Below are positions 4,095 to 19,500 of a DNA stretch of 64,000 nt, piece by piece. Every line of letters starts with the position of its first letter. Within the stretch, counting starts at the first letter, position 1. The DNA lies in assembly GCA_963742115.1 (NCBI GenBank), contig CAVUKQ010000014.1:517850-581849 (forward strand). Reading direction: 5' to 3'. The notes beneath the pieces were generated by a model. It searched no databases. It was not told the DNA's origin and saw nothing but the letters and a program-made list of their open reading frames with translations. A program made the translations under genes and the position numbers. Origin of the DNA: an uncultured Gammaproteobacteria bacterium. Lineage in GTDB: Bacteria; Pseudomonadota; Gammaproteobacteria; Steroidobacterales; Rariloculaceae.

Positions 4095-6465
4095 TCACCG
4101 CACGGTACCGCCCTGCGCCTGCCAATAGCGAACGCGCCGCGAGCGCTCGGTCACGAGCGCGGCCCCGCGCTCGTCGAGCGAGACCGTGAGCGCGCCGTCG
4201 TCGCCGGTCACGACGACGCGCGCTCCAGCGCGCTCCCAGCGCGCACGGACCGCGGGCTTCGGAAACCCCCAACGATTCGCGTAGCCCGCCGAAACGAGCG
4301 CGAGCTTCGGGCGCACGGCGTCGACGAACGCTTGCGAGGACGACGTCGCGCTGCCGTGGTGCGGCACGACCACGACGTCGCTTGCGAGCGGGCCCGCGCG
4401 CAACGTCGCACTCTCGCCGCGGCCCTCGATGTCGCCCGTGATCAGCGCCGACGCGCCGCGCGTCTTCACCGCGAGCACGCACGAGCTCTCGTTGCCGCGC
4501 GGCGCGAAGTCGCCCGCGGGATGCAGGATCGCGAAATGCACGCCATCCCACTCCCAATTCTCACCGCGCTCGCAGACGCGCCCCCGAGGAAGCGAGACGT
4601 CGGGGCCCTCGAGCACATCCGCCTCGGGAAACGCGGCGAGCACCGCGACCGCACCGCCCGCGTGATCGTTGTCCGCGTGGCTCACGATAAGGCGGTCGAG
4701 CCCCGGCGGTCCGCTCGCCGCGAGCGCCGGCAGCACGATGTCGTCGCCGCTGTCGAAGCCGGAGCGGAAGCTCGGCCCTGCGTCGAACAGCAAGCGATGC
4801 GCGTGCGTGGCCACGCTCACCGCGAGCCCTTGCCCCACGTCCAACGCGACGATGCGGGCCGCGCCGGGCGCGGGTACGTCGCGCGCCGGGAAGAACATCG
4901 GCAGCACGGCGAGCCACGCGAGCCCACGAGCGGGCAGCGGCCGAGCGCACAGCGCGAGCACGACGCCGCACGCGGCGAGCGCGATCGTGACCGGCGGAGC
5001 GTGCGGCACCGCGAGCGCGGCCAACGGTGCCGCGGCGATCGAGTGCAGGATCGCGACCGTGTGCGCCGCGAGCCAGCCGACGACGAGCAGCACCGCCGGA
5101 GCGGTGGTCGCCGCGAGCGCGTCGACCTGCAGCAGCAGTGTCGCGAGCAGGGTGAGCGGCACGAGCACGAGATTGAACAACGGAATCGCGACGAGGTTCA
5201 CCAGCGGGCCGACGAGCGACACTTCGTCGAAGAAGGCCGCTGTCAGCGGCAGCAGCGCGAAGCCGATGGACCACTGCAAGCGCGAGCAGCGCGGCAGCGG
5301 GCCGCAACACTCGCCGCCAGCGCGGCTGCATCTCACACGGTACGCGGCGCGGCGCCGCGAGCGAAAGCAGGAGCGCTACGGCGCCATAGGACAGCCAGAA
5401 CGAGGCCGACAGCGGCGAGAACGGATCCCAAACGAGCACGGCGAGCAGCGTCGCGGCGAGCACTTGGGTTGCACCGACGGAGCGCCGGCTCACGAGGAGC
5501 GCGAGCGCGACGACCACCATGAGCAACGAACGCTGCGCTGGCACCGCGAGCCCGGTTAGCGCGGCGTAGTAAGCCGTGCAGAGCGCGCTCGCGACCGCGG
5601 CGATCTCGAGGTCGAAGCTCGCGACCGGTTGCGGCAGACGGATCACGAGCGCGCGCAGCGCGAGGAACACGAGCACGCCGATCAGCGCGACGTGCATGCC
5701 GGACACGGCGACGAGATGGCTCGTGCCCGTACGCCTGAAGTCCGCCCAGTGCTCTTCGGTGAAGCGGTAGCGCTCGCCGATCGCGAGCGCGGTAACGAGG
5801 GCTGCGGCATCCGGATCGCGCAACACAGCGCCGATCCGCTCCGCGATTCGAGCTCGCAAGCCGAGCCACGCGCGCGCGGGACTCTGCGCGGCGCCGGCGG
5901 CGGGCGCGCCGGAGCGGACGTAGCCCGTCGCGCCGTGATTCGTGACCATGAGCCAGCGCTCGTAGTCGAACCCGCCCGGGTTGCTCGAGCCGTGCGGCGG
6001 CCGCAACCGCGCGACGAGATCGAGTGCGTCGCCGGGCGCAAGCGGATTCTTAGGCTCGTACCACGTGAGCCGCACGCGCGGCGGAACACCTGGCGGCGGG
6101 TCGTCGACTTTGAACGAGAACGTGATCTGTCCCGGTGCAGCGGTCGGAAACGAGTCGACGAAGCCCGTGAGCGCAACGTCGCGGCCGAGCGCTGCCGGCG
6201 GTAAGCGCTGCGCGAGCCGCTCGCCGGCGCAAAACGCCGTCCACGCGAACCCGGCGAGCGCGAATACGAGCCAACGCGCATGAGCGGACCGCAACGCGAG
6301 CAGCGCACAAAGCGCGAGCGGAGCATAGGCTGCGAGCGGCGGGAGTCGCGGCAGCTCGTGGACGGCGAGCGTCCCGATCAGCCACGCGACGGCGATCCGG
6401 TTGATCGGAGCGCTCGCGGACGACGCGACCGCCCTTGCTATGCCGCGCGCGAAACGCGGCAACAC
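4095..6465 (-). CDS. comEC: DNA internalization competence protein ComEC/Rec2; one frame break
   Basis: The N-terminal ORF (4561..6465) has the competence-domain TM region (HLVAVSGMHVALIG...). The C-terminal ORF (4095..5336) has a metallo-beta-lactamase domain (VSHADNDHAGG, VVPHHGS). The frames join near 5280 (..RWRRVLRPAAALLA / LQWSIGFALLPLTAAFF..). Length is 3n+1. Confidence 0.8.
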
Positions 6466-12666: not shown

Positions 12667-14047
12667 ATGCCCGACGCCCTGCTGCTCGCTCGTATCCAGT
12701 TCGGGTTCACGATTTCGTTCCACATCCTATTTCCCGCCTTTTCGATCGGCCTCGCGAGCTGGCTCGTCATGCTCGAGCTCCTGTGGCTGCGCACCGGCAA
12801 AGCTGCGTACCAAAGCCTCTATAGGTTCTGGCTCAAGATCTTCGCGGTATCGTTCGGCCTCGGCGTCGTGTCGGGGCTCGTGATGAGCTTCGAGTTCGGC
12901 ACGAACTGGAGCGCGTTCTCCGCCGCAACGGGCAACATCTTGGGGCCGTTGCTCGGCTACGAGGTGTTGACCGCATTCTTCCTCGAGGCCACGTTCCTCG
13001 GCGTAATGCTGTTCGGCGCGGAGCGCGTGAGCCGCGGCGTGCATTTTCTCGCGACCTGCGTCGTGGCGCTCGGCACGCTGATCTCGGCGTTCTGGATCCT
13101 CGCAGCGAGCAGCTGGATGCACACGCCGGCGGGCTACAGCATCCGCGACGGCGTGTACTACCCCGAGAGCTGGCTCGCGATCGTCTTCAACCCGTCGTTC
13201 CCGTATCGCTTCGTGCACATGACGCTCGCGGCTTACTTGAGCACGTGCTTCGTCGTCGCGGGCGTGTCCGCGCGCTACCTGCTCAGGGGCGAATATCCGC
13301 AGCGCGCGAAGCTCATGCTGCAGCTCGCGGTCGTGTTCGCGAGCATCGTGGTGCCGCTGCAGATCGTCGATCGGCGACCTGCACGGGCTGAACACCGTCG
13401 AGCATCAGCCCGCGAAGATCGCCGCGATGGAGGCGCACTGGGAATCGCGCGCGGGCGCGCCGCTGATCCTGTTCGCGTGGCCCGACGCCGCGGCGGAGGA
13501 GAACCGCTTCGAGATCGCGATCCCGAAGCTCGGCAGCCTGATCCTGCGCCACGACGTCGACGCGACCGTCACGGGTCTCAAGGAGTTCGCGCCGCGCGAC
13601 CGGCCGTCGGTGCTTATCCCGTTCTTCGGTTTCCGCACGATGGTGGGCATCGGCATGCTGATGCTCGCGGCGGCGTGGACCGGCCTCGTGCTGCTCGTGC
13701 GCGGCAAGCTCGTCGCGGCGCGCTGGTACCTCACGATCCTGCCGTGGATGATCCCAGCCGGATTCGTCGCGCTGCTCGCGGGCTGGCTCACGACCGAGGT
13801 CGGGCGGCAGCCGTACATCGTGTACGGGCTCATGCGCACGGCCGACGCCGTCTCGGCGGTGCCTAGCGCGAGCCTGCTGACGACGCTCGCGTTGTTCGTC
13901 GGCGTGTACGGAGGCGTATTCGGCGCGGGCGTGTATTACATGGCGCGCCTGATCCGCAACGGTCCCGCCGAGATAGGGACATCCGCGGCCGCGACGCCGG
14001 CTCGTCCGCTATCCATGCCCGGCGAGCCCCTCGAGGGAGCGCACTGA
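12667..14047 (+). CDS. cydA: cytochrome bd-type (CIO-like, short Q-loop) ubiquinol oxidase subunit I; one frame break
   Basis: The N-terminus LARIQFGFTISFHILFPAFSIGLA is canonical CydA. The frame changes at about 13368 (..PLQIV / IGDLHGLNTVEHQPAKIAAMEAHWES..), where a single extra g is visible in gtcGatcggcgac. The total of ~460 codons implies a short Q-loop. Confidence 0.85.
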
Positions 14048-15053
14048 TGGAAGGCGAAGTGCTGCCGTTCGTCTGGCTCTGCGTCATCGGATTCGCGATC
14101 TTCATGTACGTGCTGCTCGACGGCTTCGTGCTCGGCGCGGGAATCCTGTTCTCGTTCCTGCCGCGCGACGCGGACCGCGACACGCTGATGACGTCGGTCG
14201 CGCCGATCTGGGACGGCAACGAGACCTGGCTCGTGCTCGGCGCGGGCGGGCTGTTCGCGGCGTTCCCGCTCGCTTACTCGATCGTGCTGCCCGCGCTGTA
14301 CCTGCCGTTCATGCTCATGCTGCTCGGGCTCGTGTTCCGCGGCATCGCATTCGAGTTTCGGTTCAAAGCGAAACGCCGCCGGCACGTGTGGGACCGCGCT
14401 TTCCAGTGGGGCTCGATCGCCGCGACGTTCTGCCAAGGCCTCGTGCTCGGTGCGTTCGTCGAAGGGTTCGACCTCGACGGCACGCGCTTCGTCGGCGGCT
14501 CGCTCGCGTGGGCTTCGCCGTTCGGCGTCGTCACCGGGCTCGCGCTCGTCGCGGGCTACGCGCTGCTCGGCGCGACCTGGCTCATCATGAAAGCGCCGGG
14601 CGATCTCGAAGCGTGGGCGAGACGCGTGTCCGCGCGCCTGCTGCTGCTCGTGCTCGTGCTGATCGCGCGTGATCAGCGCGTGGGTACCGTTTCTCGACAA
14701 CGACATCCGCCTGCGTTGGTTCTCTCTGCCGAACTTCTACTTCTTGTCGCAGGTGCCGCTGCTCACCTTGATCGCGGGTTTTCTGCACTGGCGCACGACG
14801 CACTCGCGGCGCACCGTGGCGCCGTTTCTGCTGACGCTCGCGCTGTTCGCGCTCGGCTACGCGGGTCTCGCGATCAGTCTCTGGCCGAACATCGTGCCGC
14901 ACTCGATCCCGTACTGGGCGGCCGCGGCCGCGCCATCGAGTCAAACGTTCCTGCTCGTCGGGCGCCGCCGTCGCGCTGCCGGCCGTGCTCTTCTATACCG
15001 CGTATTCCTACTACGTGTTCCGCGGCAAGGTCGTGCGCCCGTTGAGCTACTGA
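14047..15053 (+). CDS. cydB: cytochrome bd-type ubiquinol oxidase subunit II; two frame breaks
   Basis: Its ATG overlaps the cydA TGA (TGATGG). Conserved DGFxLGxG and WDGNETWLV motifs are present. Frames change near 14658 (..LVLVLIA / VISAWVPFL..) and near 14965 (..SQTFLLV / GAAVALPAVLFYTAYSYYVFRGKV..*). Length is 3n+2. Confidence 0.8.
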
Positions 15054-15070: not shown

Positions 15071-16141
15071 CTAGGCCGCGTTCGAACGCAGCCCGCGGCG
15101 CGCGCGCACGGCCTGCGCGAGACGCTCGAGCACGCCGAGCGAGGATTCCCAGTCGAGACAGCCGTCCGTGATGCTCTGGCCGTAGCGCAACGGCCGCCCC
15201 GGCGCGAGGTCCTGCCGTCCGCCGACGAGATGGCTCTCCACCATCACGCCCACGATGCGCACCTCGCCGCCCGCGATCTGCGCCGCGATGCTGTCCGCGA
15301 CGCGCGGCTGATTGTCGGGTTGCTTCGAGCTGTTCGCGTGGCTCGCGTCGATCATCAGACGCTGCGGCAAGCCCGCCTGCTCGAGCAGCTTGCACGCGGC
15401 CGCGACATCGGCGGCCTCGTAGTTCGGCTTCTTGCCGCCGCGCAGGATCACGTGGCCGTCCGGATTGCCGGCGGTCGCGGCGACCGTCGCACGCCCGTCC
15501 TTGGTCACCGCGAGAAAATGATGCGGGTGCGCGGCCGCGCCGACCGCGTCCACCGCGATCTTCACGTTGCCGTCCGTGCCGTTCTTGAACCCTACGGGAC
15601 ACGAGAGCCCCGAAGCCATCTCGCGGTGCACCTGGCTCTCCGTCGTGCGCGCGCCGATCGCACCCCAGGCGACCAGGTCGGAGATGTATTGCGGCGAGAT
15701 GATGTCGAGGTACTCGACGCCGGCGGGCAATCCGAGCGCATTGATGTCGCAGAGCAGCCCACGCGCAAGCCGCAGCCCCTTGTTGATCTTGAACGTCCCG
15801 TCGAGATCGGGATCGTTGATCAGCCCTTTCCAGCCGACGGTGGTGCGCGGCTTCTCGAAATACACGCGCATCACGATCTCGAGCGCGTCACCGAGGCTGT
15901 CGCGCATGACGCGGAGGCGCAGCGCGTACTCCATCGCGGCCTTCGGGTCGTGGATCGAGCACGGCCCGATCACGACCGCGAGCCGGTCGTCGGCGCCGTG
16001 CAGAATCGCGTGCAGCGCCGTGCGCGCGGCCGCCACCGTGCTCGACATCGCTTCGCTGCACGGCAGCTCGCCGAGCACCTCGGCCGGCGTGCTGAGCGCA
16101 TCGAAGCTGCGAATTCGTAGATCGTCTGTGTACGGCGGCAT
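15071..16141 (-). CDS. aroG: 3-deoxy-7-phosphoheptulonate (DAHP) synthase, class I (AroF/G/H type)
   Basis: Motifs EKPRTTVGWKGLINDP, GLSCPVGFKNGTDG and IDASHANS are present. ATG at 16141 has SD GGAGAAGAG upstream. Isoenzyme specificity cannot be read from the sequence. Confidence 0.9.
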   Translation of the reverse strand: MPPYTDDLRIRSFDALSTPAEVLGELPCSEAMSSTVAAARTALHAILHGADDRLAVVIGPCSIHDPKAAMEYALRLRVMRDSLGDALEIVMRVYFEKPRTTVGWKGLINDPDLDGTFKINKGLRLARGLLCDINALGLPAGVEYLDIISPQYISDLVAWGAIGARTTESQVHREMASGLSCPVGFKNGTDGNVKIAVDAVGAAAHPHHFLAVTKDGRATVAATAGNPDGHVILRGGKKPNYEAADVAAACKLLEQAGLPQRLMIDASHANSSKQPDNQPRVADSIAAQIAGGEVRIVGVMVESHLVGGRQDLAPGRPLRYGQSITDGCLDWESSLGVLERLAQAVRARRGLRSNAA

Positions 16142-16182
16142 AACTCTCTTCTCCGGTGGTTCAGCGAGCGAACCCACGGCAT

Positions 16183-16214
16183 AAAAAAAGCCGCCAGGTT
16201 CGCTGGCGGCTTTT
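16183..16214 (-). terminator. intrinsic terminator inside the aroG 5' leader (candidate attenuator)
   Basis: Minus strand reads AAAA-GCCGCCAG-CGAAC-CTGGCGGC-TTTTTTT. It ends about 41 nt before the aroG ATG, and no co-directional gene lies upstream because mfd is divergent. Confidence 0.75.
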
Positions 16215-16237
16215 CTGGGTGTCTCGGTTTTAGTCGT

Positions 16238-16318
16238 TCAGACCGTTCGCGACCCTTCCTCCGCCTGCGGCTTCGGAAACGCGTAATACCAAAAGTGGAA
16301 ACGGGCGGTCGCGGTCAT
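16238..16318 (-). CDS. candidate aromatic-amino-acid leader peptide (26 aa) of the DAHP synthase gene
   Basis: ATG at 16318 gives MTATARFHFWYYAFPKPQAEEGSRTV, with TGA at 16240..16238. Six of eight consecutive codons are Phe, Trp or Tyr. The terminator begins 24 nt downstream. No convincing SD precedes the ATG. Confidence 0.55.
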   Translation of the reverse strand: MTATARFHFWYYAFPKPQAEEGSRTV

Positions 16319-16405
16319 AGGCGCGCATTGATACCACAGGTTCGGGCGGTTCGCCAAATTTCCGGCACACGGGGCGCCCATCGGGCGTATGTGCCAACGC
16401 CGGCA

Positions 16406-16518
16406 CGTCGAGCTCGCGAGCATCGTTCCCGGGACACGCTAAGAAGCCATCCCTGGGGCTCGGCGGCGCACATCCCTGTGCGCCGACGGTCCCGGGAACG
16501 ACGCTCGCGACCTCGACG
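16406..16518. repeat. 113-bp nested inverted repeat in the aroG-mfd intergenic region
   Basis: 30-nt arms at 16406..16435 (cgtcgagctcgcgagcatcgttcccgggac) and 16489..16518 are complementary at 28 of 30 positions. An inner 8-bp hairpin ggcgcaca-tccc-tgtgcgcc sits at 16465..16484. Confidence 0.7.
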
Positions 16519-16593
16519 CGCCGGCCCAAGCGTCACGTTGGCCGCCCGGAAGCGGCGCTATGGGATAATTCGCGCCCTTTCCGTCGGTCGAAC

Positions 16594-19500
16594 GTGATGG
16601 CTCGTGACTACGTATTGAGTGATTTGCCGCTGCCGGATGCCGCGCGGCCGCGCGTCGAGTGGGCGCAGCTGCACGGAGCGGGCATCAGCCTCGGCGTCGC
16701 GGAGGCCGCGTCGCGGCATCGGGGAACGGTGTGCGTAATCACGCCCAATGCGGCGGCGGCCGACCGTATCGAGCGCGAGCTCGAGTTCTTCGGCGGGCGG
16801 CCCCCGCGGCGGTTCCCGGACTACGAGACGCTGCCGTACGAGCCGATATCCCCGCCTCAGGACCTGCTCGCGGACCGGCTGCTTCGGCTCTACCAGCTCG
16901 CGCGCGGCGAGCCGCAGACGCTGATCGTGGAGGCCGGGGCCCTGCTGAGCCGCCTGCCGCCGCCCGAGTTCGTGCTGTCTCGATCGCTGTCCGTCGCGGT
17001 AGGCGACCGTCTCGAGCACGCCGCGATGATCCGCCGGCTCACGGAGCACGGCTATCTGCGCGTCGAGCAAGTCGCCGAGCCCGGCGAGTTCGCCGTGCGC
17101 GGCGCGGTGCTCGACGTATTCCCGACGGGCAGCAGCGGGCCGATCCGCATCGACCTCTTCGACGACGAGATCGAAAGCCTCCGCGTGTTCGACCCGCAGA
17201 CACAGCTCTCGGCCGGCAAGATCGACTCGATCCGAATCCTGCCCGCGCGCGAGTTTCCGTTCGACGACGCGGCGATCAAGCGTTTCGCGAGCGCTTCCGC
17301 GAGCAGTTCCACGTCGACCCGAGCCGCTGCCCCGTGTACCGCACCATCTCCGAGGCTCAGCTGCCGGCCGGGATCGAGTACTACCTGCCGCTGTTCTTCA
17401 CGGCGACCGTATCGCTGCTCGACTATCTCGGCGAGGACGTGTTGATCGTCGTAGCCGAAGACGCCCTCGCGGGGCTGGACGAGGCTTGGAGCCTCGTAAC
17501 GGAGCGCTACGAGCAACTGCGCGGGGACATCGAGCAGCCGATCTTGGCGCCCCCGCAAGCGTTCTTCGCGCCGGACGAGCTCAGAGGCGGAATCGCGGAA
17601 CGCCGCACGCTGGTGCTGCTCGCACGCGAGACGCCCGACGTCGCGTCGAGTGGCGACGGCGCGTTCAACGCGGGCATCACGCATCCGCTCGCGAGCGGCG
17701 TCGCGGCGTCCGACGATCGAATCTCGCGCTGGCTCGGCGCCGACAGCGGCGAGCGCACGCTGCTCGCGACGTCGTCGCCCGGGCACCGCGAGATGATGCT
17801 CGATCTCTTGCGCAACCGCGCCCGCGATCCCGTCACGTTCGCGAGCTGGGACGAGTTCCTCGCGAGCGACATGCCGCTCGGCGTCGCAATCGCGGAGCTC
17901 GGCGAAGGCCTGCGCATCGCGGCGCGCAAGATCCGCGTGATCACGGCCACGGAGCTCGGCATGGAGCGCCCGAGGCAGCGCCAACGTCGCCGGCGCGCGC
18001 GCGATCCCGAGGCCGTGATCCGCGAGCTCACCGACCTGCACATCGGCGCGCCGGTCGTGCACGAGGATCACGGCGTGGGCCGCTATCGCGGCCTCACGAC
18101 GCTGGACGTCGACGGTGTGCTCACGGAGTTCCTGCTGCTCGAATACGCGGGCGGCGACAAGCTGTACGTGCCCGTGCAGAGCCTGCACCTCGTCACGCGC
18201 TACAGCGGCGCGGCCCCCGAGGACGCACCGCTGCATCGGTTGGGCTCGGATCAATGGGCGAAGGCGAAGCGCAAAGCCGCCGAGCAGGCGCGCGATACGG
18301 CCGCCGAGCTCTTGAATCTCTACGCCCAGCGCGCGGCGCGCCAAGGCACGCAGCTCGCGCTCGACGAGAACGCATACCAACGCTTCGCGCTCGAGTTTCC
18401 GTTCGAGGAGACCGAGGATCAGCTCACCGCCATCGAGCGCGTGCTCGCGGACCTCGCGAGCGAGCGGCCGATGGACCGCGTGGTCTGCGGCGACGTCGGC
18501 TTCGGCAAGACCGAGGTCGCTCTGCGCTCCGCGTTCGTCGCAGTGCAGGCGGGTTATCAAGTGGCCGTGCTCGTGCCGACCACCCTGCTAGCGGAGCAGC
18601 ACTACCGCACCTTCACGGACCGGTTCGCTGAGTGGCCCGTGCGGGTCGAGCTGCTGTCGAGGTTCCGCAGCGCCGCGGGCTCTACGGAGGCGCTCAAGGG
18701 GCTCGCGGAGGGCAACGTCGACATCGTGATCGGCACTCACAAGCTGCTGCAGCCGGATCTGAAGTTCAAACGGCTCGGCCTCGTGATCGTCGACGAGGAG
18801 CACCGCTTCGGCGTGAAGCACAAGGAGCGGCTGAAACGGCTGCGTGCGGAAGTCGACATGCTCACGCTCACGGCGACGCCGATTCCGCGCACGCTCAACA
18901 TGACGCTCGGCGGGCTCCGTGATCTCTCGATCATCGCGACACCGCCCGCGGACCGGCTCGCGGTGAAGACCTTCGTCGGCGAGTGGAGCGATCGGCAGAT
19001 CCGCGAAGCCGTGCTCCGCGAGATCCGCCGCGGCGGGCAGATCTACTTCGTGCACAACCGCGTCGAGAACATCGAGACCATCGCCGAGCAGCTGCGCAAG
19101 CTCCTGCCCGAGGCCGACGTGCGCGTCGCGCACGGCCAAATGTCGGAGCGCGAGCTCGAGGTCGTGATGCTCGACTTCTACCACCGTCAGTTCAACGTGC
19201 TCGTTTGCACGACGATCATCGAGAGCGGCATCGACATCCCGACCGCGAACACGATCATCATCAACCGCGCCGATCATCTCGGCCTCGCGCAGCTGCACCA
19301 GCTGCGCGGACGAGTCGGCCGCTCGCACCACCAGGCGTACGCGTATCTCGTGGCGCCGCCGATGCGCGCGTTGTCTGCGGACGCGGTCAAACGGCTGGAA
19401 GCGATCGAGTCGCTCGAGGAGCTCGGCTCGGGCTTCGCGCTCGCGACGCACGACCTCGAAATTCGCGGTGCCGGCGAGCTGCTCGGCGAGGGGCAGAGCG

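Follow-up and report, generated by a model that had tools for sequence, protein, structure and literature searches.

In this study, we have examined the leader of aroG, the gene for a class I 3-deoxy-D-arabino-heptulosonate 7-phosphate (DAHP) synthase, in a 64,000-nucleotide stretch of DNA (the window) from an uncultured gammaproteobacterium (contig CAVUKQ010000014.1), and we have followed this leader into other Proteobacteria. The gene, which is the presumed target of regulation, occupies positions 15071-16141 of the minus strand and is recognised by NCBIfam TIGR00034 (527 bits) and NF009395 (514 bits); its ATG is at 16141, preceded by the Shine-Dalgarno (SD) sequence GGAG at 16154-16151. On the upstream side lies mfd (NCBIfam TIGR00580, 940 bits), which diverges from aroG, and no co-directional gene precedes the latter. 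On the other side cydB (14047-15045, plus strand, a Pfam assignment) converges on the 3' end of aroG, which makes aroG monocistronic. Between mfd and aroG stands a short open reading frame (ORF) rich in aromatic codons, followed by an intrinsic terminator that ends at 16183, 41 nt before aroG. A first-pass annotation of the window had proposed that these elements form an attenuator of aroG that responds to aromatic amino acids, and its identification of aroG, its positions for the SD and the ATG and its divergent mfd agree with ours.

The leader ORF (MTATARFHFWYYAFPKPQAEEGSRTV) comprises 26 codons and a TGA stop codon, and extends on the minus strand over 16238-16318, from the ATG at 16318-16316 to the TGA at 16240-16238. 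Codons 7-14 (16300-16277, minus strand) read TTC CAC TTT TGG TAT TAC GCG TTT, or F-H-F-W-Y-Y-A-F, and our own reading of the minus strand reproduces the ORF and the run as they had first been described. Across the six frames of the 64 kb, this is the single stretch with at least six aromatic codons in eight, and none of 100 first-order Markov simulations produced one; the run is therefore not a matter of chance. It sits in a patch with a GC content of 37.5%, against 67% for the window, so that the AT-rich patch reported earlier inside GC-rich DNA is real. The run also favours codons that are rare locally, with TTT for two of its three Phe and TAT for one of its two Tyr, where aroG and mfd together use TTT 4 times and TTC 33 times, and TAT 6 times and TAC 24 times.

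Between the leader ORF and the structural gene lies an intrinsic terminator, AAAAGCCGCCAG-CGAAC-CTGGCGGCTTTT plus further Ts (16214-16183, minus strand), with a folding energy of -19.4 kcal/mol (z = -4.3); none of 200 shuffles folds as well. Its 3' side can be written as CUGGCGGCUUUU plus UUU, or as CTGGCGGC and then seven Ts, with the U-run at 16189-16183. The hairpin and the seven Ts are thus as the first-pass annotation had them, but the stop codon is separated from the A-run by 23 nt and not 24. In the family of leaders described below, 92.6% of cells are paired in this hairpin, a value that 0 of 500 shuffles reaches, and one pair is swapped between AU and GC (42/27 sequences), alongside other double changes. 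A generic consensus terminator scan did not pick up the hairpin at 16214-16183; our guess is that some of the Ts are taken up by the A4/U4 base pairs that lengthen the stem.

We compared the window with 80 genome loci that encode AroG relatives at 65-75% identity, from gammaproteobacteria (Stenotrophomonas, Luteimonas, Pseudoxanthomonas, Dyella, Rhodanobacter), betaproteobacteria (Bordetella/Achromobacter, Caballeronia/Paraburkholderia/Trinickia, Janthinobacterium/Massilia and other Oxalobacteraceae) and alphaproteobacteria (Bradyrhizobium, Mesorhizobium, Devosia, Kaistia and others). A script that looks for an aromatic-rich small ORF and then a terminator found the arrangement in 70 of the 80 loci, 35-126 nt before aroG. 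A first covariance model (R1), made from an alignment of these script-found loci with the window included, gave full-length matches in 74 of the 80 and exactly one in the window (16179-16333, minus strand, 104 bits). As this model had been trained on the window, a second (R2) was built from 51 alpha- and betaproteobacterial sequences only, without the window and without the gamma clade. R2 matches the window at 16179-16330 (minus strand) with 93.2 bits, E about 7e-22, over model positions 1-152; this match, directly upstream of aroG, is the sole full-length one in the 64 kb, and the same model recovers 12 of 12 gamma-clade loci. The window element is thus a member of a proteobacterial family of aroG leaders, and the alignment of upstream regions that had been recommended as a check finds both leader and terminator conserved in 74 of 80 related genomes, with the in-frame cluster of end-product codons kept in the same number of loci.

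The association of this element with aroG is equally consistent. Neither mfd nor cydB stands beside aroG in any of the 80 genome loci, and the neighbours seen in the window are not common to any of them, so that the leader travels with aroG and not with its surroundings. A motif-only scan of metagenomes with the pattern GGCGGAGGAAGG, gap, GCCGCCAG, gap, CTGGCGGCTTTT returned at least 120 loci; among the matches listed, all 113 that had sufficient sequence downstream to be evaluated carry an AroG homologue there on the same strand, 57-89% identical to the AroG of the window and starting about 50 nt past the pattern.

Within the family, the reading frame is maintained while its content varies. 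The ATG column is invariant in a 51-sequence alignment (A4), and in nearly all relatives the ATG lies 3-9 codons ahead of the first aromatic codon. There are 48 distinct runs among 71 loci, in which F, Y and W, as well as synonymous codons, are exchanged freely. Aromatic codons make up 86% of the family runs in frame, against 22-25% in the other two frames, a frame-specific enrichment that lends indirect support to translation of the leader. Each of the 64 distinct genome leaders has both Phe and Tyr codons, and 40 of them (as well as 52 of 68 metagenome leaders, among the matches listed) encode all three aromatic amino acids, Trp being the variable one. Trp codons are universal in the gamma clade, window included, and in the alpha clade, and mostly absent from Alcaligenaceae and Oxalobacteraceae. 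By codon content, the initial proposal that a single leader reads all three aromatic tRNA pools could thus hold for Phe and Tyr across the family, but for Trp only in those 40 leaders. As a separate observation, His codons (CAC/CAT) recur within the aromatic runs: beside that of the window (16295-16297, minus strand), they appear in L072, L079, L019 and L039, in contexts such as FHFWYY, FHFHFYFF, FHFYF and the WHL of Burkholderiaceae. A single base separates His from Tyr codons, and this may be all that lies behind their recurrence.

At the RNA level, three motifs are near-invariant across all classes: GGCGG in the 3' half of the leader ORF, CCGCC in the 5' arm of the terminator and GGCGG in its 3' arm. 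The first is the core (16265-16261) of region 2 (CGCAGGCGGAGGAAGGGUCGCGAACGGUC; 16241-16269, minus strand), whose partner is either region 1 or region 3; the second is the core (16209-16205) of region 3 (CGAGACACCC...GCCGCCAGCG; 16201-16226, minus strand), the 3' strand of an antiterminator. As the CCGCC core overlaps the 5' arm of the terminator, helix 2:3 uses this arm and excludes the terminator. The apex of the antiterminator is a small hairpin over the leader stop codon (GGUC-UGAAC-GACU; 16232-16244, minus strand), with equivalents of other sequence in relatives (CUGAAG/CUUCAG, CGAUC/GAUCG, GCUG/CAGC). Over 70 sequences the leader GGCGG shows little or no change, and it is retained where the frame over the motif differs (L013, L057, L067 and L071), from which it follows that the peptide tail P-x-A-E-E-G, although it looks conserved, is a by-product of a constraint on the RNA. 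In the lineage of L052, all three copies have been altered jointly, to AGCGG, CCGCU and AGCGG.

The first-pass annotation had left the antiterminator to a folding check, and this check yields mutually exclusive helices: in isolation, the antiterminator segment of the window (16265-16261 with 16209-16205 at its core) folds at -21.6 kcal/mol (z = -1.7) and the terminator at -19.4. When a stalled ribosome was imitated by truncating the RNA before region 4 and masking codons 8-12, regions 2 and 3 paired at -23.1 kcal/mol. Pairing of GGCGG with CCGCC is possible in 68-70 of 70 sequences; over the outer helix of the antiterminator, 76.6% of cells are paired, against at most 54.5% with a slid partner, and none of 500 shuffles does as well. 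Left unconstrained, regions 2 and 3 fold with the full core (5/5 pairs) in 70 of 74 distinct sequences, and over these 74 the mean fold energy is -23.0 kcal/mol for the antiterminator versus -16.1 for the terminator hairpins. The two strands of the antiterminator interior, which varies in sequence among relatives, co-evolve, with -11.8 kcal/mol for cognate and -10.9 for re-paired strands (0 of 5000 permutations, z = -4.2). RNAalifold, run on the family alignment, recovered the outer antiterminator helix only and nothing for helix 1:2; it misses the interior helices because these shift register between clades.

Opposite region 2 stands region 1 (GACCGCGACCGCC; 16304-16316, minus strand), the 5' strand of an anti-antiterminator, which contains the G of the start codon. 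Starting at the AUG, 18 nt of the leader are complementary to a stretch at the 3' end of its ORF that runs from GGG up to and including the stop codon: in the window, ORF nucleotides 3-6 (GACC) pair with 75-78 (GGUC), and 7-12 (GCGACC) with 65-70 (GGUCGC), where the window coordinate is 16319 minus the ORF position. Helix 1:2 is present in ribosome-free folds of the window. Since the interior of the antiterminator uses the same 3' bases, helices 1:2 and 2:3 exclude each other, and a ribosome stalled at the regulatory codons would mask region 1. Each lineage has its own complementary sets, among them GAACGCA/UGCGUUC, AUCGCG/CGCGAU, GACCG/CGGUC, GCGUCCC/GGGACGC and CGUAC/GUACC against AAUAC/GUAUC. 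Mononucleotide shuffles of helix 1:2 over the family (mean z -1.0) and the CCGCC permutation count (28 vs 2-18) are suggestive at most. A within-clade re-pairing of close relatives, gained from the metagenome scan and taken among the matches listed, gave -14.4 kcal/mol for cognate versus -11.4 for non-cognate strands (0 of 5000 permutations, z = -9.7); in the same comparison, the window has -16.7 versus -12.1 kcal/mol and rank 3 of 67. Among the tests of helix 1:2, this re-pairing was decisive, where the earlier ones were suggestive.

Upstream of the leader ATG we recognise a putative -35 hexamer, TTGGCG (16352-16357, minus strand), 18 nt upstream of the -10 hexamer of a putative extended -10 element, TG-g-TATCAA (16328-16336, minus strand), which ends 9 nt before the ATG. 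In the gamma clade, GTGnTATC and TTGnnn stand at a fixed distance from the ATG in 13 of 13 loci, and the alpha clade has the layout GTGACA, 17 nt, TATATG, 7 nt, ATG. Among the matches listed, 84 of 92 distinct metagenome upstream regions carry a TGnTAnnnn box that ends 6-9 nt (mode 8) before the ATG. A generic promoter scan detected nothing at the leader promoter, since it demands a final T that this -10 hexamer does not have. As a rule, RNA polymerase initiates some 7 nt downstream of the -10 hexamer. With the box 9 nt from the ATG, transcription would thus begin at the AUG or within 3 nt of it, which suggests a leaderless mRNA, or one with a 5' untranslated region (UTR) of 0-3 nt. Such a start would explain why no SD precedes the leader ATG, an absence that had been listed as a caveat and that we also find, with the conserved -10 box 6-9 nt away pointing to leaderless initiation. 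It would also place the in-frame ATGs at 16381 and 16423 outside the transcript: the first of these, which had been mentioned as a possible alternative start, does exist, but the putative promoter puts it upstream of the RNA. We also observe that the leaderless arrangement, with a -10 box 6-9 nt from the ATG, is apparent in the gamma, alpha and Alcaligenaceae clades; members from Burkholderiaceae and Oxalobacteraceae have 5' UTRs of 25-45 nt, with a weak GGA about 10 nt before the ATG in Oxalobacteraceae. From its sequences, this seems to be one attenuator family with two modes of initiation.

Based on these results, we consider it highly likely that monocistronic aroG is controlled by a ribosome-mediated leader-peptide transcription attenuator. 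Conservation in 74 of 80 loci, alternative helices, co-variation and linkage to aroG all favour the aromatic-codon attenuator first proposed for this locus. What the computation shows is four regions that can pair in alternative ways, that are conserved and co-vary, and that are linked exclusively to aroG; from these results we infer where transcription starts, that the leader is translated and that aroG responds to amino acids. In our model, transcription would start at the leader AUG or about 3 nt from it, and the leader would be translated in the leaderless mode. With charged Phe-, Tyr- and Trp-tRNAs in supply, the ribosome would reach the UGA (16240-16238) and cover region 2 while regions 3 and 4 are being made; with region 2 covered, the 3:4 hairpin would form and transcription would stop at the U-run (16189-16183). 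If there is no translation, or if the ribosome has been released, region 1 would pair with the 3' part of region 2, and termination would again follow. When an aromatic aminoacyl-tRNA is scarce, the ribosome would stall in codons 7-14, where it would hide region 1 and leave region 2 free, since the last aromatic codon begins 14 nt ahead of GGCGG. Region 2 could then pair with region 3 as it emerges, the terminator would be blocked and aroG would be transcribed.

The spacing of the family is compatible with such a sequence of events. In 70 of 70 sequences, GGCGG begins 11-23 nt past the position where the last aromatic codon starts (14 nt in the window), and the stop codon lies 1-32 nt past GGCGG (20 nt in the window). 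Given the established sizes of ribosome footprints, a ribosome stalled at any regulatory codon should leave region 2 free, and a terminating one should cover region 2 or the interior strand.

Several observations weigh against this model. The leader ATG is without an SD, so that translation depends on the leaderless start proposed above. At equilibrium, the full transcript always folds to the terminator, even with a masked ribosome, and antitermination would have to depend on co-transcriptional kinetics beyond equilibrium folding. The interior of the window antiterminator is below the average of its clade (rank 52 of 77). The window leader segment with helix 1:2 folds no better than its shuffles (z = 0.1; duplex 0.0), and cross-clade re-pairing of this helix is weak (110/2000); on these two tests, the anti-antiterminator that a stalled ribosome could mask fares less well than in the within-clade comparison. 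Finally, the element is missing from 6 of the 80 AroG relatives, namely two Planctomycetes, one Sphingomonadales metagenome-assembled genome (MAG), two Burkholderiales MAGs and one short contig.

The same data can be read in other ways. The leader could be a small gene in its own right, with a separate promoter and terminator, that acts in trans through a small RNA or the 26-residue peptide, with control of aroG incidental or secondary. A conserved promoter and a strong terminator of its own do predict the accumulation of a separate RNA of about 135 nt, and the Sinorhizobium trp attenuator sets a precedent, as its RNA rnTrpL and peptide peTrpL are reported to act in trans (PMC6614838, PMC7298713). 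We nevertheless hold this reading to be very unlikely: the element stands directly before aroG in all 113 motif-only hits (among the matches listed) while the neighbours differ in every genome, and the conserved tail of the peptide follows the RNA motif and not the frame, which argues against a peptide function. In addition, a role in trans would supplement attenuation rather than replace it.

A shade less probable again is that the helices are switched by a riboswitch ligand, by an RNA-binding protein of the trp RNA-binding attenuation protein (TRAP) type or by uncharged tRNA, and that the ORF is a coincidence. The missing SD would fit this reading, as would the fact that the strongest conservation is at the RNA level, in GGCGG and CCGCC. 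However, ATG, frame, run and stop have been kept across the 48 runs with their synonymous and F/Y/W exchanges and frame-specific enrichment, the interior sequence between the helices varies freely with no conserved ligand-binding domain, Rfam gives no riboswitch or T-box match, and the distance from the run to region 2 suits a ribosome footprint. Scarcely credible is a constitutive or bidirectional terminator that insulates aroG, with the ORF as a chance frame, for although the A4 and T7 flanks make the hairpin resemble a plus-strand terminator too and the models score its reverse strand at 22-26 bits, the divergent mfd leaves nothing to terminate in the direction of aroG, an aromatic run of such density is absent from simulations, and the whole unit of 150 nt, beyond the hairpin, is conserved across three classes.

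The ribosome-mediated attenuator that we favour could be taken further. A rather unlikely extension of our model would be a leaderless attenuator with three inputs (Phe, Tyr and Trp), in which the 5'-terminal AUG is itself a strand of the anti-antiterminator helix. The start codon would in that case be open to ribosomes only for a brief period during transcription, a single pioneer ribosome would serve each transcript, and the released RNA of about 135 nt, conserved in alpha-, beta- and gammaproteobacteria, would perhaps act in trans like rnTrpL.

Attenuators of this kind are well known, and trpL, pheL, hisL, thrL and leuL are established examples. What we describe is thus a known kind of regulator and not a new one, in the form of a widespread, uncurated family of proteobacterial aroG leaders. 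It shares with the pheL-pheA/trpL class a short ORF with codons for the products of the pathway, helices 1:2, 2:3 and 3:4 and a terminator before a biosynthetic gene. Unlike that class, it governs the enzyme at the entrance to the common pathway rather than one in a terminal branch, its run combines codons for Phe, Tyr and Trp where the others repeat a single amino acid, and it is probably leaderless, with its AUG inside helix 1:2. Its distinctive traits are hence the mixed run on an entry enzyme, the triple GGCGG/CCGCC motif across three classes and the probable leaderless AUG in helix 1:2. The attenuator class is summarised in PMC11802643.

Searches of current databases agree with the first-pass annotation, which knew of no curated family for such a leader: none is found in Rfam 15, NCBIfam or Pfam. 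The whole window has no match in Rfam 15 at gathering scores, and neither do the leaders of 10 diverse relatives. Rfam RF01859 (Phe_leader) reaches 26.5 bits (E = 0.056) where its gathering score is 55, and Thr_leader (RF00506) 17.3 bits where its gathering score is also 55, both below the level of membership. We rejected an identity with Phe_leader, as the alignment is confined to the terminator hairpin and leaves out 75 positions of the model, which makes the match a hairpin artefact; matches to microRNA families at permissive E-values were set aside as hairpin artefacts too. Six leader peptides, run against NCBIfam and Pfam at E up to 10, match no model.

In the open-access literature, we found no description of a proteobacterial aroG leader peptide; an earlier mention elsewhere is possible. 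Traces of the element are probably present in a genome survey (Naville and Gautheret, 2010; PMC2965389), which reports premature-terminator (attenuator) candidates before aroG in 22 cases (p = 2.5e-10), with the mechanism entered as "?" in 21 (tables S0, S1 and S8; family HBG000409; for example Aave_0852 of Acidovorax). These terminators very probably belong to the present family. In the survey, no leader peptide, antiterminator or mechanism is given, and the Acidovorax entry is without small-ORF and peptide-leader flags. Attenuation had also been hinted at for aroF or aroH in enterics, Vibrio and Shewanella, in earlier work.

Two systems from other phyla deserve comparison. In Corynebacterium glutamicum, the aroR-aroF attenuator (Neshat et al., 2014; PMC11802643, PMC4046766) likewise has an aromatic leader peptide, with Phe-Tyr-Phe, upstream of a DAHP synthase gene; transcription goes up when the ribosome stalls, and Phe limitation alone is reported to be active, not Tyr limitation (PMC11802643). 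It differs from the aroG leader in being actinobacterial, in its three regulatory codons and in that no Trp codon is reported for it. Compared by description only, the two seem likely to have arisen independently. In Acholeplasma, the uORFC-13-1 motif (Brewer et al., 2021; PMC8632094) is predicted to contain an upstream ORF that has Phe codons and directly abuts a terminator stem, before aroF. It resembles our element in placing an upstream ORF and a terminator ahead of a 3-deoxy-7-phosphoheptulonate synthase gene. It differs in its restriction to one Mollicutes genus and environmental sequences, in a U-run that encodes one Phe or more and in the presence of a ribosome binding site, and its architecture is unrelated to the GGCGG/CCGCC of the aroG leader.

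The surroundings of the element offer some observations of their own. The start of mfd is ambiguous (16594-16659, plus strand): GTG at 16659 is the first in-frame start after a stop, and an ATG at 16597 is off-frame. The alignment with the Mfd profile begins at residue 207 of the ORF, against profile position 225, and the N-terminus may be slightly shorter than usual, or the start mis-set. Between the mfd start and the leader promoter lies a long imperfect palindrome (16399-16525), single-copy in the window, with arms of 37 nt each (16399-16435 and 16489-16525) that are 92% complementary and with a second palindrome nested at 16456-16493. It could be an insertion resembling a repetitive extragenic palindromic (REP) element or a miniature inverted-repeat transposable element (MITE), or a regulatory site of mfd, and it is the source of spurious Rfam microRNA matches. 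Beyond cydB, cydA is apparently split over two reading frames (12667-14047, plus strand): the ORF at 12667-13866 covers positions 1-228 only of the Pfam Cyt_bd_oxida_I profile, and a second ORF in another frame (13427-14047), which ends at the cydB start, covers positions 248-418. This looks like a frameshift near 13370-13430, either as a pseudogene or as a sequencing error. The 64-kb window contains no tRNA or rRNA genes that we could find, and a look-up of its exact AroG protein returned no record. Among the relatives, a Stenotrophomonas maltophilia locus (L004) carries a tandem glycine riboswitch (RF00504, 45.5 + 40.1 bits; 4474-4680, minus strand) about 1 kb downstream of aroG, which has no relation to the aroG leader.

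In conclusion, our results bear on how bacteria control the entry to aromatic amino acid synthesis. The DAHP synthase genes of Escherichia coli are the textbook case of control by the repressors TyrR and TrpR. If our model is true, the committed step of the shikimate pathway would be directly under the control of charged tRNA across a large part of the Proteobacteria, with family members in Stenotrophomonas, Bordetella/Achromobacter, the relatives of Burkholderia, Bradyrhizobium and Oxalobacteraceae, and the aroG terminators that the 2010 genome survey had typed "?" would gain a proposed mechanism. The alignment and model are fit for submission as a curated RNA family, for an RNA and a peptide that current genome annotation misses. 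For the metabolic engineering of aromatic compounds, the element would offer a small, naturally occurring sensor of how well the cell is supplied with aromatic amino acids. Its mixed F/Y/W run would also serve to ask how one leader weighs several tRNA pools, and its likely leaderless start would serve to study attenuation without an SD.

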